Shown: one piece after another, positions 2,865 through 62,069 of the stretch
Layout of the letters: the number at the start of each line of letters is the position of its first letter
Position numbering within the stretch: the stretch's first letter is position 1
IMG/VR virus record: IMGVR_UViG_3300045988_125296
Direction: 5' to 3' (one strand)
DNA length: 64,000 bases
DNA from: a virus
Program-made: the position numbers and the translations under genes
Notes under the pieces: generated by a model
Seen by the model: only the letters and a program-made list of their open reading frames with translations
What the model was told of the DNA's origin: nothing
Database searches by the model: none

Positions 2865-3053
2865 ATGAAACACTTAGTATCAAAAGAAGGATTCCTATTT
2901 GTAAGCAAGGATTTTATAAATGGGGTAATAGTGGCAAAGGAATTATTTATTCCCGATGACTACAATTATTTGGATTTATATATGGAATTACCAGAACAAG
3001 AAGCCTTAGAATTGCAAGAAAAATATAACATAGAAAATGCCACTTCTAATTAG
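2865..3053 (+). CDS. hypothetical protein
   Basis: 62-aa ORF starting 2 nt after the upstream stop. Confidence 0.5.
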   Translation: MKHLVSKEGFLFVSKDFINGVIVAKELFIPDDYNYLDLYMELPEQEALELQEKYNIENATSN

Positions 3054-3417
3054 ATTTATCCGAATTTATGCACCTTTTGTCTGTACATTGGCCACGTTAA
3101 TAAATGGAGTTATCTTTGTGAAAGGTTTCACTGATTGTTCCGAGGTGTATGTTTTGTCTGCCTTTGCTGGAAGTTCAATATTTGTAACAGCGTATATGTT
3201 TGTCACTTCTTTTAGAATGTGTAAATGGTATAAGCTAAATTTACTTTGCCTATTATTGACTCAGCTATGTAGCATAGCGTATAACTACCTTGACATAGAT
3301 ACCTCTTTGTACCTATGGGTGGTTACGTTGTTATCCGGATTAGGAATTATGTTCTTCCTAATATTTAGGATATTCTATAAGGTTACAAATTTGTTTCTGT
3401 GTATTGGCAGATATTGA
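3037..3417 (+). CDS. hypothetical multi-pass membrane protein
   Basis: 126 aa with 3-4 hydrophobic segments (FVCTLATLINGVIFV, VYVLSAFAGSSIFVTAYMFV, LWVVTLLSGLGIMFFLIF). Confidence 0.55.
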   Translation: MPLLIRFIRIYAPFVCTLATLINGVIFVKGFTDCSEVYVLSAFAGSSIFVTAYMFVTSFRMCKWYKLNLLCLLLTQLCSIAYNYLDIDTSLYLWVVTLLSGLGIMFFLIFRIFYKVTNLFLCIGRY

Positions 3418-3694
3418 TTACAACCATAATGGCACTGAGACCGAGTTCTTGTAAGGCTTCTATGGAGAATTTCTTTCTGCGAACAAAGGCAATGTACGCT
3501 GTTATTACCTCGGTATTCTTAGTTAGACCATTGTTTTCACGAATATGGCGCATGTGATTGTTCACAGTGTGCGGAGAGATATTTAGCTTGTCTGCTATTT
3601 CCTTTTCCGAGTAGCCTCTAACTAAGAGTTCAGCGACTTTTATTTCTGCGACTGAGAAAATTGGTGTTTTTACGTTATTGACATGCATAGACAT
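3383..3694 (-). CDS. LuxR/GerE-family HTH transcriptional regulator
   Basis: The only convincing minus-strand gene. Classic GerE HTH: SVAEIKVAELLVRGYSEKEIADKLNISPHTVNNHMRHIRE. The 3' end overlaps 3037..3417 convergently. Confidence 0.8.
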   Translation of the reverse strand: MSMHVNNVKTPIFSVAEIKVAELLVRGYSEKEIADKLNISPHTVNNHMRHIRENNGLTKNTEVITAYIAFVRRKKFSIEALQELGLSAIMVVINICQYTETNL

Positions 3695-3779: not shown

Positions 3780-4085
3780 ATGATTATGAAAGAGACATAT
3801 TTAGAGATTCTAAGAATCGTTGAAGAAGTTACTGATGTTAGTGCTTCTGAGATGTTAACCTCCAATTGTGAAGAACACGTTGACGCAAGACATATCCTTG
3901 TATATGTTTTAGGCAATCGTGGTTTCTCGGATACAAAGATTGCCGAGTTTACCAAATTAACGAGACCTTGTGTCTGTATGATTCGGAATAATTTCAAATA
4001 CCGGAAGAAACGTTATTTTGTAAATCTTCACTATCAAGAAGTTTATCGTAGAATATTTTTGAGTAAAGATATAGTAACGGAGTAG
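3780..4085 (+). CDS. DnaA C-terminal domain-like HTH protein
   Basis: Divergent from the LuxR gene. EILRIVEEVTDVS...ARHILVYVLGNRGFSDTKIAEFTKLTRPCVCMIRNNF parallels DnaA domain IV (aRqiaMYL...s...IG..f....TV). Confidence 0.6.
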   Translation: MIMKETYLEILRIVEEVTDVSASEMLTSNCEEHVDARHILVYVLGNRGFSDTKIAEFTKLTRPCVCMIRNNFKYRKKRYFVNLHYQEVYRRIFLSKDIVTE

Positions 4086-4194: not shown

Positions 4195-5124
4195 ATGTCA
4201 GAAGACAGAATTACTGAAAAGGTTTATTGTTACGACCATCCAAGCGCTTATGGTCACAACAATGACGCATTGGCAATGGCCATGCTTGCCAATCAAAAGA
4301 ACAATGCCGACCCTATGACTATGGCGGCTATGATGAACGGAGGAATGGGTATGAACAACTGGATGAACAATCCTTTTGCCTATATCATGTTCCTTGCCTT
4401 GTTTAGAAACGGTTTTGGTTTTGGTAATGGAGACGGTTTCGGTTATGGTCAAGGTCAGCAAAATGTTGAAATGCAGAATCAGTTGCAAGCTATTCGCTCG
4501 CAATTGCAAGACAACCAGAACAGCAATCTTCTTATGGACGCTATTAAGGGTAACGAGTTTGCTCTTAGCCAACTTTCTCAAAACTTGCAGATTGACTTTA
4601 ACACGCTTCAAAAATGTTGCTGCGATGTTCAAGCCGCTATTCAGCAAGTTGCAGGCCAAGTTGGTTTCTCTGCGGAAAGAGTCATCAACGCAGTTAACAT
4701 GGGTGACTGCAATGTTATTCAAGCTCTCAAAGACTGCTGCTGCCAAACTCAGCAACTCATACAACGTATGGGCTTCGAGAACCAACTTGCTCAAAAAGAC
4801 ACAATCAATGCCGTTCAAAAAGGTGTTTGTGATTTGGGCTTTGGAATGCAGGCAGGTTTCGACCGTACCAATTCGGGTCTTGAAAGAGGTTTCTCGCAAA
4901 TTGGTTACGACACTCAGAAACAAACTTGCGACATCATTACTGCCGGCAACGCTAATACCCAGCGTATTATCGACACTCTGAACAACCATTGGAATGACGA
5001 AAACCAGAGAAAGATTCAAGACTTGAAGTTCGAGCTTTCTCAGGAACGTCAAAACAATCTTATCCTTAACCGTTTGAACGGTTGTGGATGTGGTAATGGT
5101 TGTGGCTGCGGATGCGGTCAGTAA
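4195..5124 (+). CDS. Q/N-rich, Cys-rich repeat protein with C-terminal (Cys-Gly)n tail, unknown function
   Basis: 309 aa. M/N/G-rich N-terminus with GFGFGNGDGFGYGQGQ. Repeats begin at CCC triplets (codons 141-143 and 181-183) and single Cys (212, 245). Ends NGCGCGNGCGCGCGQ. Confidence 0.75.
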   Translation: MSEDRITEKVYCYDHPSAYGHNNDALAMAMLANQKNNADPMTMAAMMNGGMGMNNWMNNPFAYIMFLALFRNGFGFGNGDGFGYGQGQQNVEMQNQLQAIRSQLQDNQNSNLLMDAIKGNEFALSQLSQNLQIDFNTLQKCCCDVQAAIQQVAGQVGFSAERVINAVNMGDCNVIQALKDCCCQTQQLIQRMGFENQLAQKDTINAVQKGVCDLGFGMQAGFDRTNSGLERGFSQIGYDTQKQTCDIITAGNANTQRIIDTLNNHWNDENQRKIQDLKFELSQERQNNLILNRLNGCGCGNGCGCGCGQ

Positions 5125-5152
5125 TTGTTTAACCGTAAAAACTTAAAAGACT

Positions 5153-5566
5153 ATGGTTACATTATCGCCAGTAGGCTTAGCCGCTGCTCCTGTGGCAAAT
5201 CAAGTTGCATTCTTAGCCACATTTAAGGAGAAACTTTGCCGTTGTGTTTGCGCAACTTCTACGAATCAGCCATTTGCAACTGTTTCTTATAGGAACGAGA
5301 CACCTGTTCTTAATGGAACAACCGTATTCGTACCTATTGTAGCAACTATCACGATTACTACGCCAAACGCATGCAAGTGCCAAGCTGAGACGCAGGTAAT
5401 CAATGAAAGATTTGTGGTGGCATTTCAAGGACGGACAACACTTCCGACATCCGTTACTATTAACCAGTTAGGAATGACGCAAGGACTCATTAAGATAGTA
5501 TGTGGAAAATCAAACTGCTACGCTATCAATAGCTCCTTAACAGTTACGATTCCCACAACTGCGTAA
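5153..5566 (+). CDS. hypothetical beta-rich Cys-containing protein
   Basis: 137 aa, T/V/I-rich with CRCVC and CKC motifs. Starts 28 nt downstream of the Cys-rich gene, so probably co-transcribed. Confidence 0.6.
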   Translation: MVTLSPVGLAAAPVANQVAFLATFKEKLCRCVCATSTNQPFATVSYRNETPVLNGTTVFVPIVATITITTPNACKCQAETQVINERFVVAFQGRTTLPTSVTINQLGMTQGLIKIVCGKSNCYAINSSLTVTIPTTA

Positions 5567-5577
5567 ATGTTCAAAGA

Positions 5578-5614
5578 AGTCTAAGGAGGTTCGGAAACGT
5601 ACTTCCTTAGACTT
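5578..5614 (+). terminator. stem-loop after the Cys-rich gene pair
   Basis: AAGTCTAAGGA(5578-5588)...TCCTTAGACTT(5604-5614), ~11-bp stem. No clear T-tract follows. Confidence 0.4.
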
Positions 5615-5643: not shown

Positions 5644-6105
5644 ATGTTATTCAAAGACTTAAAAAGCGGTTATCCCATTTACATTTTTGACAGGGATAAA
5701 GTTACATTTACTCAGGCAAAAGTTCTGAGCGTAAATCCTCCCCATTTTGACAATCATTACGGCAATCCTACGGAAATGGTGGTAGATGTTACTATCGAAG
5801 GTATGCCTAAACCCTATACGTTCAAGGAAAATACGGACGCAGGCTATATGAATAGTCTTGTAATTACGACTGATAGGGACAAAGCTCTTCTTGAAGTCGA
5901 GAATTTGCAGTCACAATCCGAACAGGCTTGGAACAAAAGGGACACTTATAAGAGTATTGCTGACAAATGTGCGCAAATACGGGCGGAATTTAGTCCTGCG
6001 TTCAAAGAGAAAAAGGAGAACGAGGAGCGTTTCTCTAAATTGGAAGGCTCTGTAAGTGAGTTGAAGGATATGATTAAAGGTCTCGTAAAAGAACTGAAAG
6101 GTTAG
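5644..6105 (+). CDS. hypothetical protein with C-terminal coiled coil
   Basis: 153-aa ORF in the + strand operon. Confidence 0.65.
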   Translation: MLFKDLKSGYPIYIFDRDKVTFTQAKVLSVNPPHFDNHYGNPTEMVVDVTIEGMPKPYTFKENTDAGYMNSLVITTDRDKALLEVENLQSQSEQAWNKRDTYKSIADKCAQIRAEFSPAFKEKKENEERFSKLEGSVSELKDMIKGLVKELKG

Positions 6106-6107
6106 TT

Positions 6108-6623
6108 ATGGATAAAAAAGAATTGCTTGATAAATTTTGTCTCCTTTTTGCGGAGGTTAAAAATTCAAGGGATTCCGAAACCATTGAGGTAGCCTTACAC
6201 ATGCTTAAAAAGGCTATGAGCTTTTTACTTGATTCAAATGTACGGGTTGCGAAAGAACTCATCGAATGTTTTGACGGAAATTTGAAATACTATAATTTCC
6301 TAACTGAAATAGAATCTGATGAGGTGGTTCAAAAATTCGTTCATCAAGATGGAAGTAGAGGACCTAAATGGAGGGATTCCGAAGAATTGTTCCGCAAGAT
6401 AAAAGAGATGGGAGGTAAAATTGAATGTGAGCCCCATTATAATAAATGGGCTTTGTACGTTACAATGAACAAGATTGCTTCCAGTCAGAATAATGTTCTT
6501 GTTAAATGGGTTGGTGATGATAGAGACAGATACTTTGAAGCATGCTACGAATTGTCTGTCGCTCAACTAAAAGATAGAGTTCGCCCGTGTTGGATTCGTC
6601 CCTATTATGAAATCGGCGAATAA
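6108..6623 (+). CDS. hypothetical protein
   Basis: 171-aa ORF starting 2 nt after the upstream stop. Confidence 0.65.
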   Translation: MDKKELLDKFCLLFAEVKNSRDSETIEVALHMLKKAMSFLLDSNVRVAKELIECFDGNLKYYNFLTEIESDEVVQKFVHQDGSRGPKWRDSEELFRKIKEMGGKIECEPHYNKWALYVTMNKIASSQNNVLVKWVGDDRDRYFEACYELSVAQLKDRVRPCWIRPYYEIGE

Positions 6624-6644
6624 GATATTTTTCCTTTTGGTTAA

Positions 6645-6681
6645 ATGGAGTGGTGGGAGTTCTATCACTCCATTTTTGTTT
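6645..6681 (+). terminator. Rho-independent terminator
   Basis: ATGGAGTG(6645-6652)...CACTCCAT(6666-6673) 8-bp stem followed by TTTTTGTTT. Confidence 0.6.
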
Positions 6682-6747
6682 CTTAATGAGTAATTGGAAC
6701 TTTCGTTTTATTTTTGTATATTCATTTGTAAAATTAAATCGAAAGTT

Positions 6748-7917
6748 ATGCTAATAGAAGCGTCTATCTTATTACTGTTACAGGAGTCTATGAGAGGTCT
6801 GCCTAAACAGATACACTATTTTCCGAGAATGTTCGCTTTATCAAAAACTGGGTCTATTCGTGTGTATGATATTACGGTAGAGGATATGGGAAATCATGCG
6901 GTAATGACTACACGGAAAAAAGTAACTTTGAACGGTAAATGGACCGAGGATAAATATGAATACTGGGAAGGAGTAAATATTGGAAAATCTAATGAAACGA
7001 CATATCTCGAACAGGCGTTGTCCGAAGCACAATCAACATGGAATAGATTACAAGATGCAGGCTTCACGGTTACAATGCCAAATCCAGATGCGAAATTCAA
7101 TACGGACGCAAATGGTAAAATCAAGCCAATGTTGGCAATCAGTTTTAATGAGAAAAAGATTAAATTTCCTTGCCTCTGTCAACCTAAGTATGATGGAGTT
7201 AGATGTACAATTTCACAAGATGAAGATGGTATTCATATAATTTCTCGAAAAGGAAAGCCTTATAATATCCCCCATTTAGAGAAATGGGCCAATGAGAATA
7301 AACACTTATTACCTCTTGATGGAGAACTTTATAACCATAAAGAACTTTCTTTTCAAGAAATTATATCCGCTGTAAAACGGCTGTCCGATATTACGCCTAA
7401 AATAAGATACGTAGTATATGATAGACCTATTGAAGGAATCTCCAATAAAGAACGTTGGAGTAAACTCATTCAAGATTTTGAGAAAGTCGATAAAGACTCT
7501 CCTGCTTATCGTAGTGATTGGGTCTATTGTGATAATATGGAGCAAGTGCGGAAGTACCATAAAAAATGCGTTGCTAATGGATATGAAGGAGTAATCGTAA
7601 GAAATCTTGATGGTAAATATGAGTTTGGGTTCCGCTCCAATGATTTGATTAAATTGAAGACATTTGATGATGCGGAATTTGAAATCGTGGATGTGGTTGA
7701 GGCAACAGGTCGTGATGCTGGAACGGCTGTATTCGTATGTAAGTGTAAGGGAGGTGAATTTAACGTAAAACCGCAAGGTACAAGAGAACTCCGAGCCGAA
7801 TATTTTAAGAATGGTGATAAACTTATCGGTAAGAAAGTAACTGTTCAGTATCAGGGTTTGTCTGATGATGGAATACCAAGATTTCCGTCTGCAATATCAA
7901 TTCGAGATTATGAGTAA
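6748..7917 (+). CDS. ATP-dependent DNA ligase
   Basis: Adenylation motif I KYDGVR (CQPKYDGVRCTI), EGVIVR (motif IV) and LIKLK (motif V). First ATG at 6748, since the track start 6694 is a TTG. An alternative ATG is at 6790. Confidence 0.85.
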   Translation: MLIEASILLLLQESMRGLPKQIHYFPRMFALSKTGSIRVYDITVEDMGNHAVMTTRKKVTLNGKWTEDKYEYWEGVNIGKSNETTYLEQALSEAQSTWNRLQDAGFTVTMPNPDAKFNTDANGKIKPMLAISFNEKKIKFPCLCQPKYDGVRCTISQDEDGIHIISRKGKPYNIPHLEKWANENKHLLPLDGELYNHKELSFQEIISAVKRLSDITPKIRYVVYDRPIEGISNKERWSKLIQDFEKVDKDSPAYRSDWVYCDNMEQVRKYHKKCVANGYEGVIVRNLDGKYEFGFRSNDLIKLKTFDDAEFEIVDVVEATGRDAGTAVFVCKCKGGEFNVKPQGTRELRAEYFKNGDKLIGKKVTVQYQGLSDDGIPRFPSAISIRDYE

Positions 7918-8016
7918 GAACCTTGTAAGAATACTCGGAGAGTACTGCAATAAGAATGTGAACGACCACATAGGGTATGCCATTTATTTGTTATTGACTA
8001 AAATTGCATATAGGTT

Positions 8017-8358
8017 ATGAAAATGGAAACAAAAGACCGATACTTTAAGGAGACGGTCGAACAACTGAAAGAATGGGGATTTACGGTGTATGCCCCTGCC
8101 AACATTTTTGAGGACGTATTCAGATATGGTTGGGTTACTGATGGAACACACATTCTCTATTTTCAAATAGACGATTTAATAGGATTGGTGTTTAGTACGG
8201 AGTGTATTCCGTCCAAAGAAACTGGAAGTGGGCGTAGGCTTGATATTCCTTTTACAAAAGAGGAAATCATTAAGGCATTTGAAATGCCTTTTGGCAAACC
8301 TTATCCTAATTTTGAAAGTTTCAAAAGAAAATGTTGGAGTACCTTAATGCAACTGTAA
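8017..8358 (+). CDS. hypothetical protein
   Basis: 113-aa ORF. Its stop overlaps the next start (TAATG). Confidence 0.6.
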   Translation: MKMETKDRYFKETVEQLKEWGFTVYAPANIFEDVFRYGWVTDGTHILYFQIDDLIGLVFSTECIPSKETGSGRRLDIPFTKEEIIKAFEMPFGKPYPNFESFKRKCWSTLMQL

Positions 8359-8654
8359 TGGGAAGAGTTTACACTGGAATGGTTATTCGTACAAGTTATG
8401 GTACGGGTCCATATAGGATAGTGGACTTCACGGAGAATTGTACTTGTCCGAGTTTTATGGACGCAGTTACTTCTGGAAGTAATGCTCCACCGTCAAGACC
8501 TCATTATCACTTTATTTGTAGGAAAGTGGGCGAACATAAAGGTTACTACTATGTAAACGGTTACGATGAGAATTTAAATTCTGTATGGGATGAAGACAGA
8601 GTAATCGTATGTGCGGAAGAGACTCTTTTCTTAACTATGTGTTGCGGGTTATGA
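8358..8654 (+). CDS. hypothetical protein with CxC...HxH..C motif
   Basis: Starts at the ATG at 8358 (MGRVYTG). NCTCPSF...PHYHFIC is a possible small Zn site. Confidence 0.6.
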   Translation: MGRVYTGMVIRTSYGTGPYRIVDFTENCTCPSFMDAVTSGSNAPPSRPHYHFICRKVGEHKGYYYVNGYDENLNSVWDEDRVIVCAEETLFLTMCCGL

Positions 8655-8794: not shown

Positions 8795-8964
8795 TAACAA
8801 CTGTGGACCGAAATGACTTAAAAGTTATAGGGTATACCGATGACGTTGATGACGCTACTATGGAAAAGGTTGCATCACTAATGAGCGAGAGCATTCTTTA
8901 TCTTGATTTTTGGGCATCTCTTAAAGATGCTTGCTATAAATTAGATATAAAGAAATCCAATTAG
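8776..8964 (+). CDS. hypothetical protein
   Basis: 62-aa acidic ORF. Confidence 0.5.
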   Translation: MGKKFIVTTVDRNDLKVIGYTDDVDDATMEKVASLMSESILYLDFWASLKDACYKLDIKKSN

Positions 8965-8976
8965 TATCTTTGTGCT

Positions 8977-9273
8977 ATGGATATTAGAGTTAAAGAACCA
9001 ATTTACATAAGTTGTAAAGGTCAAGAATACGTAATACGTCCCGGAACAATTGGCGTAGATAAAAATAAGGTCGTTTATTTTTATGACGTAACACGGAGTT
9101 CTTCTGTCGGATTTTCTCGTGATTTTTGTATGGAGAATCCTCAAATTTTTCTTGTATCAAGAACTTTATCCGATAAAGAAGTTTCTCAAAGAGACGTATT
9201 CAAAATACTCGATGAGTACAACCGAAAGGAGTGCACTCTCTCAGATGTCTACGAACGAATAAAATCATTATAG
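8977..9273 (+). CDS. hypothetical protein
   Basis: 98-aa ORF. Confidence 0.6.
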   Translation: MDIRVKEPIYISCKGQEYVIRPGTIGVDKNKVVYFYDVTRSSSVGFSRDFCMENPQIFLVSRTLSDKEVSQRDVFKILDEYNRKECTLSDVYERIKSL

Positions 9274-9275
9274 CT

Positions 9276-9947
9276 ATGGCGTTGGACAAAACAAAAACAA
9301 ATCCCTATCTTGGATGTGCGGTGCATGAGAACCTAATTAAAATAGGTGTTGAGTCTCCTATGGTAGAAACTAAACTTTCAAAATACGAGGAACGACTTGT
9401 TACCATTACTCGAAATGTAAGCGAAATTATGGTGGCTCTTGGTCTTGACTTGAAAGATGATAGTCTTTGCGAGACCCCAAGAAGAATCGCTAAAATGTAT
9501 CTTAATGAGATTTTTTGGGGGCTTGACTACAATAATTTTCCCAAGATTACCACTATCGAAAATAAGATGCAATATGATAACGTATTGCTCGAACGACATA
9601 TAAAGGTTAATTCCACTTGTGAGCATCATTTTATCCCTATGATGGGAGAGGCTTTTATTGCTTATCTCCCTGATAAGAAAGTTATAGGTCTTTCTAAGAT
9701 TAACCGTATTGTGGAGTTTTTCTCTCGAAGACCACAAGTTCAAGAAAGGCTCACTGAACAGATATTTCATACTCTTTGTATGCTTTTAGAAACGGACAAC
9801 GTTGCGGTTCTTATTAAAGCTGAGCATACTTGTGTGAAACTTCGTGGAGTTGAAGATACAAACTCGGATACTATAACTTCTCGTTTAGGCGGAATCTTTT
9901 TTAATTCTCCTTCAAGAAACGAATTTTACCAGTCAATTAGACTATGA
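9276..9947 (+). CDS. folE: GTP cyclohydrolase I
   Basis: STCEHHFIPMMGEAFIAYLP...VIGLSKINRIVEFFSRRPQVQERLTEQI...KAEHTCVKLRGV matches the FolE active-site and signature blocks. ATG at 9276. Confidence 0.9.
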   Translation: MALDKTKTNPYLGCAVHENLIKIGVESPMVETKLSKYEERLVTITRNVSEIMVALGLDLKDDSLCETPRRIAKMYLNEIFWGLDYNNFPKITTIENKMQYDNVLLERHIKVNSTCEHHFIPMMGEAFIAYLPDKKVIGLSKINRIVEFFSRRPQVQERLTEQIFHTLCMLLETDNVAVLIKAEHTCVKLRGVEDTNSDTITSRLGGIFFNSPSRNEFYQSIRL

Positions 9948-10522
9948 AGAAATCCTATACAACGGTTAACAAGATAAATATAGATAACAGGCTCTTTACA
10001 GCTAAATTTTGTTGCGACTATGAGAAATGTAAAGGCGCTTGTTGTTATCAACCTCTCTCAGATACTGAACTTAACGGAGGTCAACTATCGGATTACGAAG
10101 CAGCTGACATTCTGTTTTATAGGAAACAACTCTCTTCTTTATGTGAGGAAGAATGTCAACAAATGGCACTTGAACAGCCTGTTAGTAAAGACGGTGATAC
10201 GTTTTATACCACCTTACAAAAAGAAAGATGTGTATTTTGTGATTTGAAAAAAGGAATTTGTGTTCTTAAAATAGCGAAAAAAAGTATATCCAGTATAGAT
10301 ATTCCATTAAGCTGTCAGCTATACCCTCTTATTTGGAGTGCCTTTCCAAGTTATGAGCAATTACAGATAGGCGATATATATGATGAGTATTGTGTACATG
10401 GTTACGAGAAAGGAGAGCGAGAGAATATTTTTATGCTTGACTTTTTAAGACCTCCTTTGGTTCGTGCTTTTGGAGAAAATTTTTTCCTTAAATTAAAAAG
10501 ACTTCAAAAGAAGTTTCTATAA
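9944..10522 (+). CDS. Cys-rich protein (DUF3109/YkgJ-like metal-cluster motif)
   Basis: ATGA overlap with folE. N-terminal FCCDYEKCKGACCYQPL. Further Cys pairs (CEEEC, CVFCDLKKGICV). Confidence 0.6.
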   Translation: MKKSYTTVNKINIDNRLFTAKFCCDYEKCKGACCYQPLSDTELNGGQLSDYEAADILFYRKQLSSLCEEECQQMALEQPVSKDGDTFYTTLQKERCVFCDLKKGICVLKIAKKSISSIDIPLSCQLYPLIWSAFPSYEQLQIGDIYDEYCVHGYEKGERENIFMLDFLRPPLVRAFGENFFLKLKRLQKKFL

Positions 10523-10546
10523 TTCCTCCATACATTTAATAACATT

Positions 10547-10579
10547 ACTCCCAGCATTTTGTTGGGAGTTTTATTTTTC
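10547..10579 (+). terminator. Rho-independent terminator
   Basis: ACTCCCA(10547-10553)...TGGGAGT(10563-10569) followed by TTTATTTTT. Confidence 0.55.
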
Positions 10580-10585
10580 ATAGAT

Positions 10586-10909
10586 ATGAACTACGATAAA
10601 GTAAGAGACCAATGGTTTTCCACACCTCCTTTTAAATTTGGAGTTTCGTTTTTGGGCAAGATTTATCCTAATAAGATTCCTGCGGGCACAGTGATGACGT
10701 TCTATTATAAAGAACGTCCTTATATAATGTTTCAGACTTTATTGGATATTTCTTGTTCTATCGAAAATAGAAGCCTCGTTTATTATGAACCGGGTTCTAT
10801 TGTCTTTTTAGGTGCTCCCTCACGTGTTTTACCAACACTCAGATTTGCCAACTGTCGCATGCCTACTCTTGAAGAATATGTTCGTTATATGGAATCTTTT
10901 ACAGTCTGA
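10586..10909 (+). CDS. hypothetical protein
   Basis: The track start 10559 (TTG) lies inside the terminator. First ATG at 10586 (MNYDKV). Confidence 0.6.
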   Translation: MNYDKVRDQWFSTPPFKFGVSFLGKIYPNKIPAGTVMTFYYKERPYIMFQTLLDISCSIENRSLVYYEPGSIVFLGAPSRVLPTLRFANCRMPTLEEYVRYMESFTV

Positions 10910-10927
10910 GGTTTATCATACGGACAA

Positions 10928-10959
10928 TTTGTTGAGTTCAATTTAATTTTATATATTTA
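10928..10959 (+). promoter_or_regulatory. near-consensus Bacteroides-type promoter
   Basis: TTTG(10928-10931)-N20-TATATTTA(10952-10959), 24 nt upstream of the ATG at 10983. Last base A instead of G. Confidence 0.4.
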
Positions 10960-10982
10960 TTATAGTAACTTAGTTTTTAGCT

Positions 10983-11258
10983 ATGCTTGTTGTGATATTT
11001 TTAATCTTATTCGGATTTTACATTTATCTTCTCATAAGGAATAAGAAAGTATACCTTTTTAGAGAATATCTAAGGGTTCGAGCTAATGACGAGATTCATC
11101 GTGTATTGAAAGAAGATATAGATAAATTTGAACCCTTGCTTGAAGAATGGTCTTATGCCTATAAGAGGCATAGCTATTCCAAAATGGTTTTTATTCCCAG
11201 ACCCTTAAAATCCAGCTATTGGTTTACTGAGGAAGAAGTTAAGAAATTTAATCTGTAA
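10983..11258 (+). CDS. hypothetical N-terminally membrane-anchored protein
   Basis: MLVVIFLILFGFYIYLLI hydrophobic N-terminus. 91 aa. Confidence 0.6.
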   Translation: MLVVIFLILFGFYIYLLIRNKKVYLFREYLRVRANDEIHRVLKEDIDKFEPLLEEWSYAYKRHSYSKMVFIPRPLKSSYWFTEEEVKKFNL

Positions 11259-11264
11259 CATCTT

Positions 11265-11396
11265 ATGAAGGAATGGTTGAAGAAATTTCAATGTTCGCAT
11301 GAGTGGGTGATATTACATATCACTCGTTACGAGACTTGTGATAAGCTCCTATTGACATGTAAGAAATGTGGAAAACTTAAAAAGAAAAGAATATGA
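11265..11396 (+). CDS. small Cys-containing protein (possible zinc ribbon)
   Basis: 43 codons read by hand (MKEWLKKFQCSHEW...TCDKLLLTCKKCGKLKKKRI). Below the ORF-track size cutoff. Confidence 0.4.
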   Translation: MKEWLKKFQCSHEWVILHITRYETCDKLLLTCKKCGKLKKKRI

Positions 11397-11572
11397 CAGT
11401 ACAAGAATTGATTGACGAACTTGAAAAAGTGGAAGATAAATCAGCCGAAGTGTTTTATGTACATGATATTTCAGATTATCAACTACATAGAGAAATTATA
11501 GAAAAACCATATTATGTCGAAGATATAGATGGGACCAATCCAGAAATTTGGTTAATTACAAATGGAGATTAA
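11393..11572 (+). CDS. hypothetical small acidic protein
   Basis: 59 codons read by hand. ATGA overlap with the previous stop. Confidence 0.45.
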   Translation: MTVQELIDELEKVEDKSAEVFYVHDISDYQLHREIIEKPYYVEDIDGTNPEIWLITNGD

Positions 11573-11574
11573 TT

Positions 11575-12306
11575 ATGGAAAGAAAAGTAGGAGAAATATT
11601 TGAGTACAACAGTGAGTGGTATCAATGCATGGAAGGAACAGGATGTTATAGATGTGCCTTTAATTATGATGGGAATACTTGCATTGTTGATAACCCGTAT
11701 TGTATATGTAGAAGCGATAAGAAGAATGTCATTTTCAAGAAACTTGAAAAGGTCGGAGAGCCTTTTGTTTATGAGGATAAAGTGCTTCAAAGATTGAGGT
11801 CTATTGATGGGTACTCATGTGTGCACTGTCTGTTTAAAGAGCAAGCGTGCAATTTTGACTCATGTGATAAAGACTCATTTTTAGTAGAAACCAAATTAAA
11901 ATCAGAAGATATGGAAGAAAAGAAATTGAATCTAAGACCCTTTGACCTTGAAGCAGCCAAAGCTGGTAAGCCAGTATATACTCGTGATGGTAGAAAGGCA
12001 AGGATTATTTCCTTTGATAGACATGGTGAAGATAGCCCCATTATTGCTCTTGTAGTTGATTCAAAAAATGCAGAATGTGAGGAGGTTATTGATTATACCT
12101 TAGACGGAATTTGTAATGAGAATATAATCAATCACAATAAATACGACCTCATGATGCTCTCCCAGAAGAAAGAGGGGTGGATTAATATCTATAAGGATCT
12201 TGATAATACACTTTATTGTGCTTATTTAACTAAGGAAGATGCCTTGAAAAATAGAAGTATAGGAGATGACTATATTACAACTATTAAAATCGAGTGGGAG
12301 GAGTAA
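11575..12306 (+). CDS. hypothetical Cys-rich protein
   Basis: First ATG at 11575 (MERKVGEIFEY). Cys-rich N-terminal half, then KPFDLEAAKAGKPVYTRDGRKARII module. Confidence 0.65.
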   Translation: MERKVGEIFEYNSEWYQCMEGTGCYRCAFNYDGNTCIVDNPYCICRSDKKNVIFKKLEKVGEPFVYEDKVLQRLRSIDGYSCVHCLFKEQACNFDSCDKDSFLVETKLKSEDMEEKKLNLRPFDLEAAKAGKPVYTRDGRKARIISFDRHGEDSPIIALVVDSKNAECEEVIDYTLDGICNENIINHNKYDLMMLSQKKEGWINIYKDLDNTLYCAYLTKEDALKNRSIGDDYITTIKIEWEE

Positions 12307-12308
12307 CT

Positions 12309-12551
12309 ATGAAGAAATTTTTATTGCTTTTATTAGTATCGCTTATACTAACAAGCTGCTATACAAATGGAGATACATTAATTGCTGTAAAAGAAGCACA
12401 CCCCGATAGTGAGATATACCGGATAAAGATAAATGAGTTCATACTTGTTGATTCCATAGGAATATGGTATGTGAATGCAAATATGAGTATAAAAGAACCA
12501 TATACAGAAAAACAATTAGTTAAACTTTGGAATAATCATGGGAGAAATTGA
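12309..12551 (+). CDS. putative lipoprotein
   Basis: MKKFLLLLLVSLILTSCYTNG: signal peptide with a lipobox-like LTSC. Confidence 0.6.
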   Translation: MKKFLLLLLVSLILTSCYTNGDTLIAVKEAHPDSEIYRIKINEFILVDSIGIWYVNANMSIKEPYTEKQLVKLWNNHGRN

Positions 12552-27805: not shown

Positions 27806-29461
27806 ATGCCAGTTAGGAAAAAAATTATTCCAAAAGAGGAAGGGTATGTTTTTCCGTCTACTGGGAAAAAATTTACCGAGGAGGAGGTAACCTCTGCTTT
27901 TGAGGGTAAATCTGTATCTTTTGATGCACACGATATTACCTCTAAGATAATCGAGTTTGGGAAGATTCTAACAGGTATCTCCCTTTACAGTTACCAGATA
28001 GAAGCTGTTTATGCGATTATCTATTCAGTAATAACGTTTTCGGGTGACGTTAAGACTCTATTGTTTAGTAGACAATCAGGGAAGTCTGAGGCAATAGCCT
28101 TTGTTATTGATACGCTTTGTGTATTGTTACCGTCACTTGGAAAAATCATTCCCGACTTGGAGCAGTTCAGTATGGGTTTCCGTGTTGGTTTGTTTGCCCC
28201 TCAATCGGACCAAGTTCAGACTACTTATTCTCGTGCGATGACAAGAATAAATTCCGCAAATGCGGAAATGGTATTGGCAGACCCAGATATTGATGTCTAT
28301 CTTGAAAGTACGGCAAGACTTGAATTAAGTAATGGCTCATACCTTGCAGGACAAGTAGCGAGTAAACAATCTAAGATTGAGTCAAAGACATACGACCTCG
28401 TTATTGTTGAGGAGGCACAAGATGTGGACGACCTTATCGTGAGTAAGTCTATCGAGCCTATGCTTTCTTCTACGGCTGGTACTTTAATTAAAGTGGGTAC
28501 TACGGGTATGTATAAGAATCATTTTTGGTATGAGATTCAACATAATAGACAAATTGACCGTAAGATAAAAGACTCACGTATTAGGAATCATTTTGAGTTT
28601 GACTATAAGCGTATTATAAGAGATAGACGTGAGCAGTATGAAAAGGACGGTAAACGTTTCCACTTAAATTATGAGGCTGATATTCTTCGTAAAAAAGCTC
28701 GTTGGGGTGAAGATTCTCAGGCGTTTAAGTTATCATACGCTTTGATTTGGGATTTAGAGAGTGGTATGCTTCTTACGGATAAGGAATACAACTCCATTAT
28801 AAATCGTAAATTAGGTTTTCAGTCTCCGTCAACTACTGATGTTGTAATAGCCGGATTGGACATTGGTAAATCTCCTGCTGAGACGGTATTGACAATCGGG
28901 AAAAAGTTTTACCTTGATGATTCTTTTGATAGACCCTATAAACAAATTCTTGCTTGGGTGGCTCTTGGTGGATTGGACTATGAGGCCCAACATCATATAA
29001 TCTTGGATTGTATTGTGGAATTTAATATTTCTGTTATATTTGCGGATTATACGGGTGTCGGTAAAGCTGTTGTCGATAGGCTTATGTATGCGTGCGGAGA
29101 ATATGTCGATATTGTTCCTTATACGTTTACTCCACAGAGTAAATCGGATATGTGGTTTAACTTTGTCTCGGATATTCAGACAAGGCACTTAATTGTTCCG
29201 GCTAATCCAAAAGTTCGGGCTACCACAGAGTACATGAAATTTGAAGAACAGATGAAGAATTGCCAGAAGTATTTTAACGGGGCTTACATGGTATGTGAGA
29301 AATCTGATGGATATTTTGACGACTTTGTAGATAGTTGCGCTCTTATGAGTATGGCTGCTAATGAGGAGCAAAGAGTTGATGAAGAAATGGAAGTTTCTCA
29401 AAATTCTCTTTACAGTGGAGTTACTGATACTATAAACGCAATTAGAAGAAATTCTTATTAG
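27806..29461 (+). CDS. terL: terminase large subunit
   Basis: Walker A-like LFSRQSGKSEA, Walker B YDLVIVEEAQD, C-terminal RNaseH-like nuclease Asp blocks (VIAGLDIG, FADYTGVG). Sits immediately upstream of the portal gene. Confidence 0.85.
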   Translation: MPVRKKIIPKEEGYVFPSTGKKFTEEEVTSAFEGKSVSFDAHDITSKIIEFGKILTGISLYSYQIEAVYAIIYSVITFSGDVKTLLFSRQSGKSEAIAFVIDTLCVLLPSLGKIIPDLEQFSMGFRVGLFAPQSDQVQTTYSRAMTRINSANAEMVLADPDIDVYLESTARLELSNGSYLAGQVASKQSKIESKTYDLVIVEEAQDVDDLIVSKSIEPMLSSTAGTLIKVGTTGMYKNHFWYEIQHNRQIDRKIKDSRIRNHFEFDYKRIIRDRREQYEKDGKRFHLNYEADILRKKARWGEDSQAFKLSYALIWDLESGMLLTDKEYNSIINRKLGFQSPSTTDVVIAGLDIGKSPAETVLTIGKKFYLDDSFDRPYKQILAWVALGGLDYEAQHHIILDCIVEFNISVIFADYTGVGKAVVDRLMYACGEYVDIVPYTFTPQSKSDMWFNFVSDIQTRHLIVPANPKVRATTEYMKFEEQMKNCQKYFNGAYMVCEKSDGYFDDFVDSCALMSMAANEEQRVDEEMEVSQNSLYSGVTDTINAIRRNSY

Positions 29462-29489: not shown

Positions 29490-31103
29490 ATGGGAATAGA
29501 TGTAGGTGGTATGAACCCTACCGGCGTTGGTAGTTATAATGGCTATCCGGGTTCAAAGTATTGGAATGTTGATAGTCGGCCTTTAAGTGAGGCTACGAAT
29601 GTTCTGCGTTCTTTCGTTTTACAGAATATAGTTCAAGATAATCAGTGGGAAATTGATAGAATTACCAAATACTATTTGTATTGGAAGTTCTATGAGGGAA
29701 TGCACTACAAGGATTTTAACGATGGATTGCTTTCATTTAATTATATACGAGCATTTATTGATAAGGTCAATATGTTTCTTCTCGGAGACGAAGCATTTAC
29801 TTTTCATGTTAAGAGCTTTTATACTACGCAAATAGATACGGAAGTTGAAAAACTTGCCGAAGAATTGATGATGTACCATTGGGGAAAATCTCACAAATTG
29901 CAGCTTGCTTATGAGATTTTACAGATGGGAAGTATTACGGGTGACGCTTGGCTTGGTGTAGAGTGGATGCCTGACGAAACAGATAGATACTGTCGTGTAA
30001 GTGTTTTTGATAGTAGACAATGTTTTGTCACTTTTGTAAATGGCGATTATAGTAACGTGGAGTCGTTTATGGTTAGACAACCTCTCGACCAAAATGGAAG
30101 TAATAGTCAAACCAAGTATAGATTGTTTGTTCAAAGATGGACAAATAAGAAAGTAGAGACTTGGTATCAAAAAGATGTTTCTATCGAAGAAAATAAAGTA
30201 GCCAAATATGACCATCATACTTATAAGAATAAGTACGGTTTTATTCCTATGGTGCATATAAAGAATCGCCCAAATTCTGCCGGCTATTACGGTAAGTCTG
30301 ATGCAAATGACATACTTAAAATAAATAAGGTATATAATGAAATTATGCAGCAATTAAAAGCTGTTATCGATTATCATGTTACACCTACCACTGTAATTAC
30401 GGGTGCTTCGGCTAAGTCACTGAAAAAAGGTCTCGGACAAATATGGTCGGGACTTCCTGCCGAAGCTAATGTATTTAATCTTGGTTTGGATGTAGATTTA
30501 TCCGCTACTGTAAACTTTGCGAAAGACTTAAAAACAGCAATGCATGAACTTTCAGATGTGCCGGAAAATGCTCTTGGTAAGATACAGGCTATAAGTAACA
30601 CTTCTGCTGCGGCATTACAGATTACTTATCACCCCCTCATACAACAAGCTAATATCAAGGCTATGACTTATGGGGAGGGCATTTCTGAGTTAAACAGTAT
30701 GATTTTAAGGATACTCGATATTGAAGACCCAGAAAATGAAAGACTCCTTAAATTACATGAGCTTTCTCCTAATTTTTTATCTGAGATGAGAATTGAGCCT
30801 GTTTTCGCTTATGGTTTTCCGAAGGATAAAACTGATGAGCTTAATCGTGCTCAAATGGAACTTAATATGAAACTAAGTTCTCGAAAAGAAATTATGGAGA
30901 GAATGGGTAAACAGAATATTCCTGAATTACTTGATGAAATTGACGAAGATTTGATACATTTAGGTATTGTTCAAGCCAAGATAGCCGAATTAGCTGGAAG
31001 TTTAATGCAACAATCTCCTAATGAATCTTCTGAACAAAACGCAGGACCTTTCGAAGGTGAAGAAAATGAAGAAGGTGAAGAAAACGAGGAAATCGAAGAA
31101 TAA
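29490..31103 (+). CDS. portal protein
   Basis: 537 aa, immediately after terL, with an acidic C-terminal tail (GEENEEGEENEEIEE). Called from position and size. Confidence 0.7.
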   Translation: MGIDVGGMNPTGVGSYNGYPGSKYWNVDSRPLSEATNVLRSFVLQNIVQDNQWEIDRITKYYLYWKFYEGMHYKDFNDGLLSFNYIRAFIDKVNMFLLGDEAFTFHVKSFYTTQIDTEVEKLAEELMMYHWGKSHKLQLAYEILQMGSITGDAWLGVEWMPDETDRYCRVSVFDSRQCFVTFVNGDYSNVESFMVRQPLDQNGSNSQTKYRLFVQRWTNKKVETWYQKDVSIEENKVAKYDHHTYKNKYGFIPMVHIKNRPNSAGYYGKSDANDILKINKVYNEIMQQLKAVIDYHVTPTTVITGASAKSLKKGLGQIWSGLPAEANVFNLGLDVDLSATVNFAKDLKTAMHELSDVPENALGKIQAISNTSAAALQITYHPLIQQANIKAMTYGEGISELNSMILRILDIEDPENERLLKLHELSPNFLSEMRIEPVFAYGFPKDKTDELNRAQMELNMKLSSRKEIMERMGKQNIPELLDEIDEDLIHLGIVQAKIAELAGSLMQQSPNESSEQNAGPFEGEENEEGEENEEIEE

Positions 31104-36133: not shown

Positions 36134-36572
36134 GGTTGCTATAAAAGCGCATACACGGCGTAGTAAGAGTGGTAAACAGATACAAGTCAAAGGTTACACT
36201 CGTAGAATTGGACGAAAAGGAGTTCATTCTCCAAAGCGAGAGAAAAACTCTGGGGAAGAATTGGTTGCAAAAGTTGCTGAGAAGAAATCTCCTATTTCTA
36301 AGGAAGAACTTGAAAGACGCTTAAAATGGGAAGAAGATTTTAAACGCTCCGAAGCTGAACGAAAATCATTGGGAATGTCTCCTGAAAAATATTCACGTTA
36401 CAAGTTGGCTGAGAGTGAAAGACGTGAACGTGCAGAGCACGCTGCTAAAAAGGCTTCTGAAAAAAACCCTCTATCCAAGAAAGGTTCTCAAAATATTTTA
36501 GAGCGGATTGAAGATAAAATCGCTAAATTTGTAGAGAAGTATAGTGGTAAGAAATATAAAAGAGCATTATGA
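36126..36572 (+). CDS. basic protein with N-terminal IKAHTRRSKSGKQIQVKGYTRR motif
   Basis: 148 aa, K/E/R-rich. Confidence 0.6.
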   Translation: MNEVAIKAHTRRSKSGKQIQVKGYTRRIGRKGVHSPKREKNSGEELVAKVAEKKSPISKEELERRLKWEEDFKRSEAERKSLGMSPEKYSRYKLAESERRERAEHAAKKASEKNPLSKKGSQNILERIEDKIAKFVEKYSGKKYKRAL

Positions 36573-36823
36573 GTTTTATGAAGAAACTTATACAAAATAA
36601 CAGTGGAGTAAGTTCTAAGAGTTTTTTCTTAGTTGTTGTTACTTGTATTGGGTGCTTGCTCTTGCTGATTGTTGGGTTTGTATTGGTATTCGAGGTCATT
36701 AAGTCTGGAACAATAAAGACTGACTTAAACGGCTTATCTTTATTTGTCGGCAGTATTACTGCGCTTTTCGGTGCTGCCGGACTTACGAAATGTTTAGGAG
36801 AGCGAAATGAAAAACAGAAGTGA
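36569..36823 (+). CDS. hypothetical membrane protein
   Basis: Two hydrophobic segments. ATGA overlap. Confidence 0.55.
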   Translation: MSFMKKLIQNNSGVSSKSFFLVVVTCIGCLLLLIVGFVLVFEVIKSGTIKTDLNGLSLFVGSITALFGAAGLTKCLGERNEKQK

Positions 36824-37002
36824 CTATGAAAAAGAAGATTATTTTTTGGGTCGTTGTAGTGGTCTTACTTGTAGGTATCGTTTTATACGTTCATTATGTA
36901 AGCCCCATTTCCGTATTGGTTAACGTTCTTGTTCTTGGAGTAGGAGCAGTTCTTGGCTGGGTATCTCATATCTTATACGGAAAATATTTTTCTAAGAAGT
37001 AG
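36820..37002 (+). CDS. hypothetical membrane protein
   Basis: Two hydrophobic segments (IIFWVVVVVLLVGIVLYV, VLVLGVGAVLGWV). Confidence 0.5.
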   Translation: MTMKKKIIFWVVVVVLLVGIVLYVHYVSPISVLVNVLVLGVGAVLGWVSHILYGKYFSKK

Positions 37003-40602: not shown

Positions 40603-40959
40603 ATGGGACGTAAGAGTAAAGTGAATGTAGTTTTTATCATTATCGCTGTGATAGCTATTTCCGTAGCTATATTTTCTCTTAGTAAATCTAACTCTAACCC
40701 CCCTATTATAGACTCTGAGATTTACGAAGATAATATTCGTACCCTTAATGATACGATTAAAGAACTTAAAGAGGACATTCTTTTATACCAAAAAGAAATT
40801 GAGCGTATTGATTTAGAACGTGAAAAAATAAGGCAACAGTTAAATCAAATAATCAAAGAAAATGAAGATACTGATATTGAGCTTTCTAATGGTGATTGGG
40901 ACTATAACATTAAGTTTCTCTCAGAATTTTTATCCAAAAAAGATTCTTTGGGGAAATGA
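40603..40959 (+). CDS. i-spanin-like protein (N-terminal TM plus coiled coil)
   Basis: VNVVFIIIAVIAISVAIFSL TM followed by an E/K/L-rich helix. Immediately after the endolysin. Confidence 0.5.
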   Translation: MGRKSKVNVVFIIIAVIAISVAIFSLSKSNSNPPIIDSEIYEDNIRTLNDTIKELKEDILLYQKEIERIDLEREKIRQQLNQIIKENEDTDIELSNGDWDYNIKFLSEFLSKKDSLGK

Positions 40960-41284
40960 TACAGTTCTTGCCATAACTAAGCCTCAACTTATAACTATAA
41001 ATAGGTCTTTGAATGATTTATACTTTCAGAAAAAGATAAATAAGAATCTTAGAAGCCAAATATTTGTTCAAGATTCTTTACTGACTTATTGGAAAACATT
41101 ATCTTTGAAGACAGATTCTTTGTATTTATTTGAGAATAAAAAATATGAAGAATCTTGTTTGTTAAATTCGTCTCTAAAAAAATCTTTGGAAAAGGAGAAA
41201 CGGAGAGTTACGAATATTGGTATTGGTGTAGGAGTCGGCGGCACTCTTTTAGGTGTTTTGATTGGGGTGTTGCTTGCTAAGTAA
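40862..41284 (+). CDS. signal-peptide protein with C-terminal TM, overlapping the spanin-like gene
   Basis: MKILILSFLMVIGTITLSFSQ signal. C-terminal GIGVGVGGTLLGVLIGVLLAK. Its first ~98 nt lie inside 40603..40959 in another frame. Confidence 0.45.
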   Translation: MKILILSFLMVIGTITLSFSQNFYPKKILWGNDTVLAITKPQLITINRSLNDLYFQKKINKNLRSQIFVQDSLLTYWKTLSLKTDSLYLFENKKYEESCLLNSSLKKSLEKEKRRVTNIGIGVGVGGTLLGVLIGVLLAK

Positions 41285-41306
41285 TAAATTTAAAACAATA
41301 ACTAAA

Positions 41307-61465: not shown

Positions 61466-62069
61466 GGAGTATTACTTATACTGTGGAATAAAATCGGGGT
61501 GGCATGAGAAGTCATTTGACGATTTTACTAATGACGTGGAAGCACTGGCAATCGTGAAAAAATACTTAAAGTATTCCAAAGAAGCAACCAATAAAGGTAT
61601 CGGTCTTTATCTTTGGGGTTCTAATGGGACAGGTAAAAGTCATTTAATGAACTGTTCTTTTAAGGAATTAGTAACGAAAGGAAATAAAGTTAGACTTTAT
61701 TCAATGGATGAGATTGTCGACAAATTTACTTCATCATGGTATTCTGATGAAGATAAGAAGGAACTGAATAACGTTCTTTTGAATATTGATTTTCTCGGCA
61801 TTGACGAGTTTGGTAAGAATGTAGATAAGGATGGTAATCCTGTTTATCTTCCAGATTTGGTCAAAAGGGTTATGGAGTCTGTTATTCGTTTTCGGGTTCA
61901 GATGAATAAACCTATTTGGTTTGCGTCTAATACAGACCCTAAGTTTGTAAAGGATGTTTTCTCCGAAGATATTGCCTCTTTGTTACGTGAAGCGGTGGTT
62001 CCTGTTTGTGTGAGGGGTGAAGATTATCGGAAAAGGATACAACGAAAGAATAAAAGTAGATTCTTATGA
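61440..62069 (+). CDS. DnaC/IstB-like AAA+ helicase loader
   Basis: Walker A LYLWGSNGTGKSHLMN. Walker B DFLGIDEFG. Confidence 0.75.
   Translation: MTQMDLKTKEYYLYCGIKSGWHEKSFDDFTNDVEALAIVKKYLKYSKEATNKGIGLYLWGSNGTGKSHLMNCSFKELVTKGNKVRLYSMDEIVDKFTSSWYSDEDKKELNNVLLNIDFLGIDEFGKNVDKDGNPVYLPDLVKRVMESVIRFRVQMNKPIWFASNTDPKFVKDVFSEDIASLLREAVVPVCVRGEDYRKRIQRKNKSRFL

Follow-up and report, generated by a model that had tools for sequence, protein, structure and literature searches.

A stretch of viral DNA 64,000 nucleotides long, IMG/VR record IMGVR_UViG_3300045988_125296 (hereafter the window), contains two adjacent genes for cysteine-rich proteins. Gene A (4195-5124, + strand) encodes a 309-amino acid, all-helical protein rich in Cys, Gln, Asn and Gly, which falls in PHROG 16490. 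Gene B (5153-5566, +), separated from A by a spacer of 28 bp, encodes a 137-amino acid all-β partner with conserved cysteines at residues 29, 33, 76 and 117. Both open reading frames (ORFs) had been described in an earlier note made from the sequence alone, and their coordinates, strand, lengths and motifs are as given there. A and B are members of a five-gene module which constitutes one accessory operon: a small helix-turn-helix (HTH) gene, A, B in some loci only, C, and a gene for a DUF7841 protein (D). The central finding is that the C-terminal tail of A and the gene which follows it vary together across a large family of phages.

Protein A contains 15 cysteines, at residues 12, 141-143, 172, 181-183, 212, 245, 297, 299, 303, 305 and 307. 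Its N-terminus is rich in Met, Asn and Gly, with GFGFGNGDGFGYGQGQ, and its C-terminal sequence is NGCGCGNGCGCGCGQ. Two CCC triplets lie in the interior and a CGCGNGCGCGCGQ tail at the end. The (Cys-Gly)n tail, GCGCGNGCGCGCGQ, spans residues 296-309 (5080-5121, +); it forms an exchangeable tip and is not a tandem repeat at the DNA level. Measured against a cysteine background of 1.4%, derived from 76 ORFs of the window, the enrichment claimed in the earlier note is above chance for A as a whole (15 Cys in 309 residues, P=5e-5), for its tail (5 Cys in the final 13 residues, P=7e-7) and for B (7 Cys in 137 residues, P=0.004), and the features concerned are conserved in homologues.

The description of A as built from 30-40-residue repeats, each opening with Cys, has stood in part. 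Self-BLAST of A found no repeats; alignment of sub-profiles with hhalign related two units of ~32-40 residues (residues ~135-166 and ~175-206; 4597-4812, +), which are in register with a probability of 74% and an E-value of 3e-5. Each unit bears one CCC triplet (nucleotides 4615-4623 and 4735-4743), whereas the VCD and TCD segments that had been counted with them show no detectable relationship. The second triplet (C181-183) is nearly invariant and is the most conserved feature of the whole A family, being at least 90% conserved in a 60-sequence alignment which reaches down to 27% identity; CCC is found in 69 of 81 full-length representatives. Two other reading frames within A, an embedded +2-frame ORF (4376-4981), which has no lipobox, and an antisense ORF (4198-5052), were considered as Rz1-like genes and rejected. 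Homology evidence backs the frame of A, and both ORFs are by-products of its Gln/Asn-rich codon composition.

B carries the motifs CRCVC (residues 29-33) and CKC (residues 74-76), and its homologues form 912 clusters. AF2 predicts eight strands (pLDDT 78.5, pTM 0.70); no structural relative of the model was found by Foldseek in PDB or BFVD, and profile searches with B and C against PDB sequences gave nothing significant. B proteins that are 96% identical differ by 40-50 synonymous codons out of 137, their DNA being only ~80% identical; in comparison with the copy at locus L010, for example, 91 codons are identical, 40 differ synonymously and 6 change the amino acid. Such synonymous divergence indicates that B is under very strong purifying selection and has not been recently transferred, and an initial view of the gene as a recently transferred mobile cassette was withdrawn on these grounds. 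To judge from its sequences, B is strongly constrained, and old alleles of it are reshuffled.

The loci examined comprise a first set of 82 (80 from IMG/VR together with the crAss-like phages cr124_1 and cr116_1) and a second set of 43 from species-representative genomes (GTDB), the genome scan for A having used a closer alignment as its query. The association of tail and B was counted over 127 loci, with cysteines scored in the last 22 residues of A. The tips of A are modular, being rich in Cys with Gly or Asn, rich in Thr and Ala (…ALKTTTTTTGA) or aromatic (…GFWG). About two thirds of the family lack a Cys tail and have a Thr-rich or aromatic tail instead. In every B-containing locus (42/42) A has a Cys tail, always with a CxC motif, whilst the Cys tail is absent from 82 of the 85 loci without B. 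The three remaining B-less loci are themselves informative. At L009 only a 17-codon remnant of B is left. The other two, the Bacteroides phage C3_41T2LP (L086) and L126, encode in the B slot a second β-rich Cys protein, B2 (7962-8504 and 8906-9334, respectively). The B2 proteins are homologous to each other (E 4e-7), with a shared motif TV.YGI.P.IWR.LP, and have no detectable homology to B.

The correspondence extends to individual alleles. B of type 1, which includes that of the window, accompanies a tail ending …CGCGCGQ in 14/14 loci, and this ending is specific to type 1; type 2 accompanies …CGNGCGC in 10/10 loci, and types 3-5 (12 loci in all) have their own tail endings. The window and its closest relative, L003, which share 88% identity in the A core and 94% in C, have different B types and, with them, different tail endings. 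The B of the window is, moreover, common at 96% identity to phages with A cores only ~65% identical. On a neighbour-joining tree of the A core, from which the tail was removed, the combination of B and Cys tail is found in at least five separate places, one of them nested among B-less Segatella copri prophages. The Fitch minimum for this state is 7 changes, two of which represent an artefact and a case of decay. The presence of B2 alongside CxC tails, together with the fact that no Cys-tailed A is partnerless except in the decaying L009, argues for functional coupling. On this comparative evidence the Cys-Gly tail and B (or B2) appear as a strict allele-matched pair, and the proposal in the earlier note that the 137-residue protein is a partner of A is borne out.

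The AF2 monomer of A is all-helical, with short helices over residues 89-207 followed by a long helix at 211-296 (pLDDT ~90). The hydropathy maximum of the protein lies upstream of these helices, at residues 60-86 (4372-4452, +), a putative membrane-tethering segment in which the hydrophobic core PFAYIMFLALF is followed by Arg and then by a Gly/aromatic stretch. The position of this segment is conserved and it is a true transmembrane (TM) helix in many representatives, unambiguously so in divergent members (KD19 2.23 in the virus vir215, 1.73 in C3_41T2LP). A basic residue follows the hydrophobic core in most of the family, and basic residues are biased to its C-terminal side (76 versus 39; 52 representatives versus 12). 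This bias, and the fact that the B, C and D sequences have no signal peptides, suggest that the long Cys-rich domain of A faces the cytoplasm.

The first gene of the module (3780-4085, +) encodes a 101-residue HTH protein ('family 5'), DnaA-domain-IV-like by virtue of a weak Pfam Bac_DnaA_C match. A gene of this family immediately precedes A in 36 IMG/VR loci, and does so too in C3_41T2LP and many GTDB loci. Downstream of A, B intervenes before C in only about a third of loci. C itself (5644-6105, +), a 153-residue protein with an N-terminal β-domain and a C-terminal coiled coil, is a near-universal neighbour, adjoining A in 80/82 loci of the first set and being detected in most of the 43 GTDB loci. 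Its Pfam and PDB matches are of coiled-coil type only, and its match to a 'hemolysin' PHROG reaches only 0.027. C is followed in most loci either by D (6108-6623, +), a 171-residue DUF7841 protein (Pfam PF25223, E 6e-10) and the last gene of the module, or by a similar 161-residue 'family 3' protein. The hairpin which had been noticed after B lies between B and C (5577-5614, +) and is indeed stable, with a stem of 14+2 pairs, a dG of -23.7 kcal/mol and a z of -4.4; none of 200 shuffles was as stable. It has no T-run and is not terminator-like in the scan. A terminator-like hairpin with a 15-pair stem and a T-tract follows D (6643-6675, +), closing A-B-C-D before a DNA ligase gene.

In relatives of the window, a complete cassette of holin, endolysin and spanin genes usually adjoins the module. 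At least one lysis gene (holin, endolysin or spanin-like) is present in the fetched flanks of 68/79 IMG/VR loci, corresponding to 27/34 dereplicated A clusters, and by our own count in those of 28/43 GTDB loci; the endolysin gene lies at a median of 2 kb from A. The cassette holin is typical, with 2-3 TM segments ('family 2'), and sits beside the endolysin in 55/79 loci, whilst four unrelated endolysin types (amidase, GH19, M15 peptidase and GH24) alternate in one slot. The spanin-like gene encodes either a protein with a lipobox and a C-terminal TM segment, the u-spanin architecture, or a protein with an N-terminal TM segment and coiled coil. The former family, with lipoboxes such as LASC or LGCSC, follows the endolysin in 50 loci (for example L099, 10888-11409, and L030, 4978-5388) and has no PHROG or NCBIfam match. 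The link is kept in two gene orders, 'A (B) C fam3 holin endolysin spanin' and 'holin endolysin spanin HTH A C', and holds in the crAss context also. Among the neighbour families that were annotated, the conserved ones are the HTH, C and DUF7841-like proteins, holin, endolysins, spanin-like proteins, tail fibres and integrase. Since the roles of holin, endolysin and spanin are all filled within the cassette, A is none of them. As regards a holin in particular, A is 309 residues long and has a non-charged Cys-Gly C-terminus, and a typical holin already stands beside the endolysin.

The A family has been catalogued already, and mislabelled. A matches PHROG 16490 (E 1.2e-17, residues 33-294 on profile positions 5-225 of 286), whose listed function is unknown; the homologue in vir215 bears the same PHROG note. 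This is its sole profile-family match: no Pfam family was found, and searches of PADLOC and NCBIfam gave no matches. The earlier statement that no characterised family fits A holds, and Foldseek returned nothing for either A or B. Of the two things that the earlier note had joined as able to overturn its view, a tail varying among homologues and kinship with a known structural family, the one was observed, the tail not being conserved family-wide, and no such family was found. Homologues of A form 4,833 clusters at 90% identity and 602 at 50%, their public names being 'hypothetical protein' throughout. Amongst GenBank phage annotations the labels 'outer capsid protein/viral fiber' and 'spike protein/glycoprotein' occur. 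These labels stem from a weak match of the family profile to the S2 subunit of the SARS-CoV-type spike (~112 positions, E 1.4e-5, 26 bits), spanning the hydrophobic, Gly/Phe-rich segment before heptad repeat 1 (HR1) and the Gln/Asn-rich heptad region of HR1 itself. A and the spike both end in a Cys-rich tail, which in the coronavirus protein is palmitoylated. A has, however, neither a receptor-binding part nor a C-terminal TM segment, Foldseek offers no support, and the 26-bit pre-HR1/HR1 match is all that would place A among class I fusion proteins. The match is plausibly a resemblance of heptad pattern and composition, short of established homology, and the labels 'spike glycoprotein' and 'viral fiber' are misleading for the A family.

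Members of the family occur in GenBank crAss-like phages of the Suoliviridae (cr124_1, cr7_1) and Steigviridae (cr116_1), and in C3_41T2LP, a cultured phage of Bacteroides uniformis. In cr116_1, a relative of crAss001, A-B-C is inserted with the lysis genes on one side and, on the other, the gene that precedes the major capsid protein gene. A search of crAss001 itself, the virion of which has been solved, with the family hidden Markov model showed A to be absent. Integrated copies in complete Segatella copri chromosomes indicate a Bacteroidota host for part of the family. Many of the matches in 'non-Bacteroidota' metagenome-assembled genomes (MAGs) are to phage-sized contigs. Those at L088, L102-L104, L119, L124 and other GTDB MAG contigs are in bins named Lachnospiraceae, Oscillospiraceae, Spirochaetia, Alphaproteobacteria and others, and carry the module; L124 (Oscillospiraceae), L109 and L111 have a u-spanin-type gene as well, suggesting that such contigs are probably mis-binned ones of Bacteroidota phages. 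The homologue in vir215 (L085, Caudoviricetes sp., host label Methanomassiliicoccales; 5878-6759), which has a strong TM helix, is accompanied by neither C nor B; its neighbours are genes for a reverse transcriptase on one side and an integrase on the other, and the host to which this virus is attributed is archaeal.

In cr124_1 (L001), A has 7 in-frame TAG codons and is located inside a TAG-recoded late block. TAG is read as Gln in this phage and in ~20 IMG/VR loci (e.g. L020, L063, L074-L082). A was considered as a candidate for the 'spanin' family that is reported to be rich in TAG where crAss-like phages are recoded (bioRxiv 10.1101/2021.08.26.457843). The gene spacing in cr124_1 (1.1 kb) fitted, but the idea was dropped, as the TAG fraction among Gln codons of A (0.27) is below that of its neighbours (~0.5).

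The window phage is contractile-tailed, encoding TerL (27806-29461), portal (29490-31103), tail sheath (41262-43022), tape measure (45261-47405) and baseplate wedge (51265-52776) proteins, with helicase (54744-57320) and DnaB (62066-63337) genes further downstream. A crAss-like identity was ruled out by the tail sheath, tape measure and baseplate genes. A nucleotide search of GenBank phages found no match, and relatives are represented by contigs of 85-90 kb. The module is ~23 kb upstream of the structural genes, adjoining those for DNA ligase (6694-7917) and GTP cyclohydrolase I (9231-9947). The latter is followed by genes for a DUF3109 protein with 12 Cys (9944-10522) and a 252-residue protein with 13 Cys (11548-12306), and the genes from 9231 to 12306 may represent a DNA-modification cluster of 7-deazaguanine type. 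Just upstream of the HTH gene of the module is a 126-residue ORF with 3-4 predicted TM segments (3037-3417, +), overlapping the 3' end of a convergent LuxR/GerE-type HTH gene (3383-3694, -). An 85-residue lipoprotein-like ORF (…LILTSC) is located at 12294-12551 and a 277-residue SGNH/GDSL-hydrolase-like ORF at 61-894. Homologues of the lysis genes of the relatives were looked for in the window and none was found. Candidate lysis genes of the window phage are two small single-TM ORFs (84 and 60 residues, 36569-37002) and an overlapped pair just upstream of the sheath gene (40603-41284), in which a 118-residue ORF with an N-terminal TM segment and coiled coil is paired with a 140-residue ORF whose N-terminus is signal-peptide-like, without a lipobox Cys.

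The explanation favoured here, with a probability of roughly 40%, is that A forms a membrane-tethered coiled-coil stalk with a Cys tip capped by B, encoded in an accessory operon with a lysis- or egress-associated role. A would be an all-helical and probably oligomeric stalk in which a conserved head of ~55 residues is followed by the short hydrophobic and Gly/aromatic membrane segment, the helical region with its duplicated unit and nearly invariant CCC, a terminal helix of ~85 residues and the exchangeable tip. B would most probably cap the (Cys-Gly)n tail, the cysteines of the two jointly forming either a metal-thiolate cluster or disulfides; metal binding or disulfide cross-linking by the tail is plausible. 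A and B, encoded in an operon headed by the small HTH gene, would form a complex at the inner membrane with C, a soluble coiled-coil protein, and with the DUF7841 protein, the long domain of A being on the cytoplasmic side. Such a complex, itself neither holin, endolysin nor spanin, would act at a late stage of infection, with an accessory part in timing, regulation or specificity. To judge by gene neighbourhood only, its role is probably associated with lysis or egress.

Several observations weigh against this explanation. In the window the module is situated among DNA-metabolism genes, as it is in C3_41T2LP, and in cr124_1 and one IMG/VR clade it is likewise away from lysis genes. In the light of these exceptions the lysis link is guilt by association and could be positional, reflecting hot spots for accessory genes which flank lysis cassettes. 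Two of the GenBank viruses that encode A have Methanomassiliicoccales as their host label. In the window subfamily the hydrophobic segment is weak (KD19 ~0.9, with an uncharged core of 11 residues). The pTM of the A monomer is 0.29, and with this model Foldseek returned noise only, although so low a value would be as expected were A the subunit of an oligomer. Finally, with the tail and B so close together, linkage alone could produce part of their co-variation.

Of the other explanations, one takes A to be a virion fibre: a trimeric coiled coil whose tip and B would be a swappable tip and adhesin or chaperone cassette determining host range. The exchange of a gene's 3' end together with the gene downstream, with allele matching, is the classic pattern of such cassettes, and A and B do co-vary as allelic specificity units in the manner of T4 gp37-gp38, lambda stf-tfa and Mu S-U. 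A is often encoded just after tail-fibre genes, and between fibre-like proteins in cr124_1; Thr-rich or aromatic tips of low complexity are typical of exposed fibres, and the GenBank label 'viral fiber' would fit. Yet A possesses a conserved hydrophobic or TM segment, and the conservation of its N-terminal head extends over genomes of podovirus, siphovirus and myovirus type, which would not be expected of a virion-attachment domain. The structurally solved crAss001 lacks the module, the permuted gene order places it after the spanin gene and away from fibre genes, and in the window it is outside the structural operon, 23 kb from the structural genes and behind its own HTH gene. Neither sequence nor fold similarity to fibre tip-adhesin cassettes was found, and a fibre is judged unlikely. 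A second unlikely explanation, to which similar weight is given, is superinfection exclusion or inter-phage competition, with a membrane-anchored, moron-like module gaining its specificity from allelic pairs of tip and B. The membrane segment of A, an HTH gene and terminator of the module's own, its variable position between genomes and near the integrase end in prophages, and the old, strongly selected allelic types of B reshuffled among close relatives are all in keeping with this. PADLOC offers no match, however, and crAss-like phages and the window myovirus carry the module without an integrase in the regions fetched; moreover, in cr124_1 the location of A within the TAG-recoded late block speaks against its being expressed early or in lysogeny. 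In a further reading, the tip of A and B could be a self/non-self specificity pair mounted on a membrane-tethered, spring-like coiled coil, with which phages of gut Bacteroidota would sense or exclude competing phages or time lysis. The coiled coil would resemble class I fusion proteins in its hydrophobic Gly/Phe segment and the broken HR1-like helical region after it, and the (Cys-Gly)n tail and the four cysteines of B would contribute to a joint Cys-metal cluster forming the cap. This is considered quite improbable.

Small membrane-anchored coiled-coil proteins of phages are among the known systems that A resembles. XhlA of the B. subtilis element PBSX and p16.7 of phi29 share with A a single membrane segment and a coiled coil, a likeness of architecture only; both are 3-4 times smaller, without Cys motifs or a tip partner, and no sequence similarity to A was detected. 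XhlA is encoded beside lysis genes, next to the holin XhlB, and p16.7 beside replication genes. A p16.7-like organiser of phage DNA replication or assembly at the membrane, whose coiled coil would recruit cytoplasmic partners, would suit the setting of the module in the window and in C3_41T2LP, where it follows a DnaA-C-like HTH gene and is surrounded by genes for replication and recombination. It also accords with the predicted cytoplasmic location of all the partners. Most loci are nevertheless beside lysis or tail genes, that of cr124_1 is in the late recoded block, and PHROG, Pfam and NCBIfam profile searches detected no DNA-binding domain in A, B, C or D, so that such a role is thought very unlikely. 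Two-component spanins such as lambda Rz/Rz1, in which cysteines are functionally important, resemble the A-B pair more extensively: A has an anchor near the N-terminus, a long coiled coil and Cys, its tip is paired with the product of an adjacent gene, and lysis genes are close by in most relatives. A would on this model be the i-spanin and B the distal partner of an envelope bridge acting at the last step of lysis. Covalent Cys links are a spanin hallmark (PMC6139136), and the profile of A is reminiscent of class I fusion-protein HR1. Neither B nor C has the lipobox or signal peptide of an o-spanin, though; B is missing in 85/127 loci, and the adjoining cassettes already encode a u-spanin-type or N-TM/coiled-coil protein. 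As regards the i-spanin pattern of an N-terminal TM segment and periplasmic coiled coil, the hydrophobic segment of A starts at ~60 and is weak in the window subfamily and strong in divergent members, and the charge distribution suggests a cytoplasmic long domain. A is also about twice as long and bears a 55-residue head; past its anchor it contains 14 Cys, whereas i-spanins are reported to have 6 at most (PMC6139136). The spanin analogue is accordingly rated highly improbable. The A-B pair resembles pairs of stalk and tip partner, whether i-spanin and o-spanin or fibre tip and adhesin, but is probably a member of neither class. Least credible of all is the notion of a precursor of a ribosomally synthesised and post-translationally modified peptide (RiPP), or of a metallothionein-like metal sink, in which the tail would be a heterocyclised core or a free metal-sequestering peptide. 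The composition of the tail is all that speaks for it, CxC motifs being typical metal ligands. The tail is joined to a conserved helical protein of 295 residues and has Thr-rich or aromatic alternatives, and the sole gene tracking it across the 127 loci is that for the 137-residue β-sandwich B (or B2). The annotated conserved neighbours, which do not cover all families, include no YcaO-type cyclodehydratase, dehydrogenase, radical-SAM enzyme, protease or exporter. About two thirds of the family have no Cys in the tail, and the likeness to thiazole/oxazole-modified peptides drawn in the earlier note is not supported.

What is new, for a family known hitherto as a catalogue entry, is the five-gene module, its habitual position by the lysis cassette, the near-invariant CCC, the modular tips and the allele-matched coupling of the tail to B or B2. 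Among uncharacterised gene sets in the gut viromes of humans and animals, the A family is one of the more widespread, spanning crAss-like phages of at least two families, Segatella copri prophages and large myovirus-like phages. The coupling of tail and B is a concrete predicted protein-protein, and possibly metal, interaction, and the pair marks a recombining specificity cassette in gut phages. An effect of the module on lysis or on competition between phages, if it has one, would matter for how these phages persist alongside their hosts in the long term. If the tip of A and B were indeed a specificity pair, they would represent a new phage envelope device with allelic 'lock-and-key' tips.

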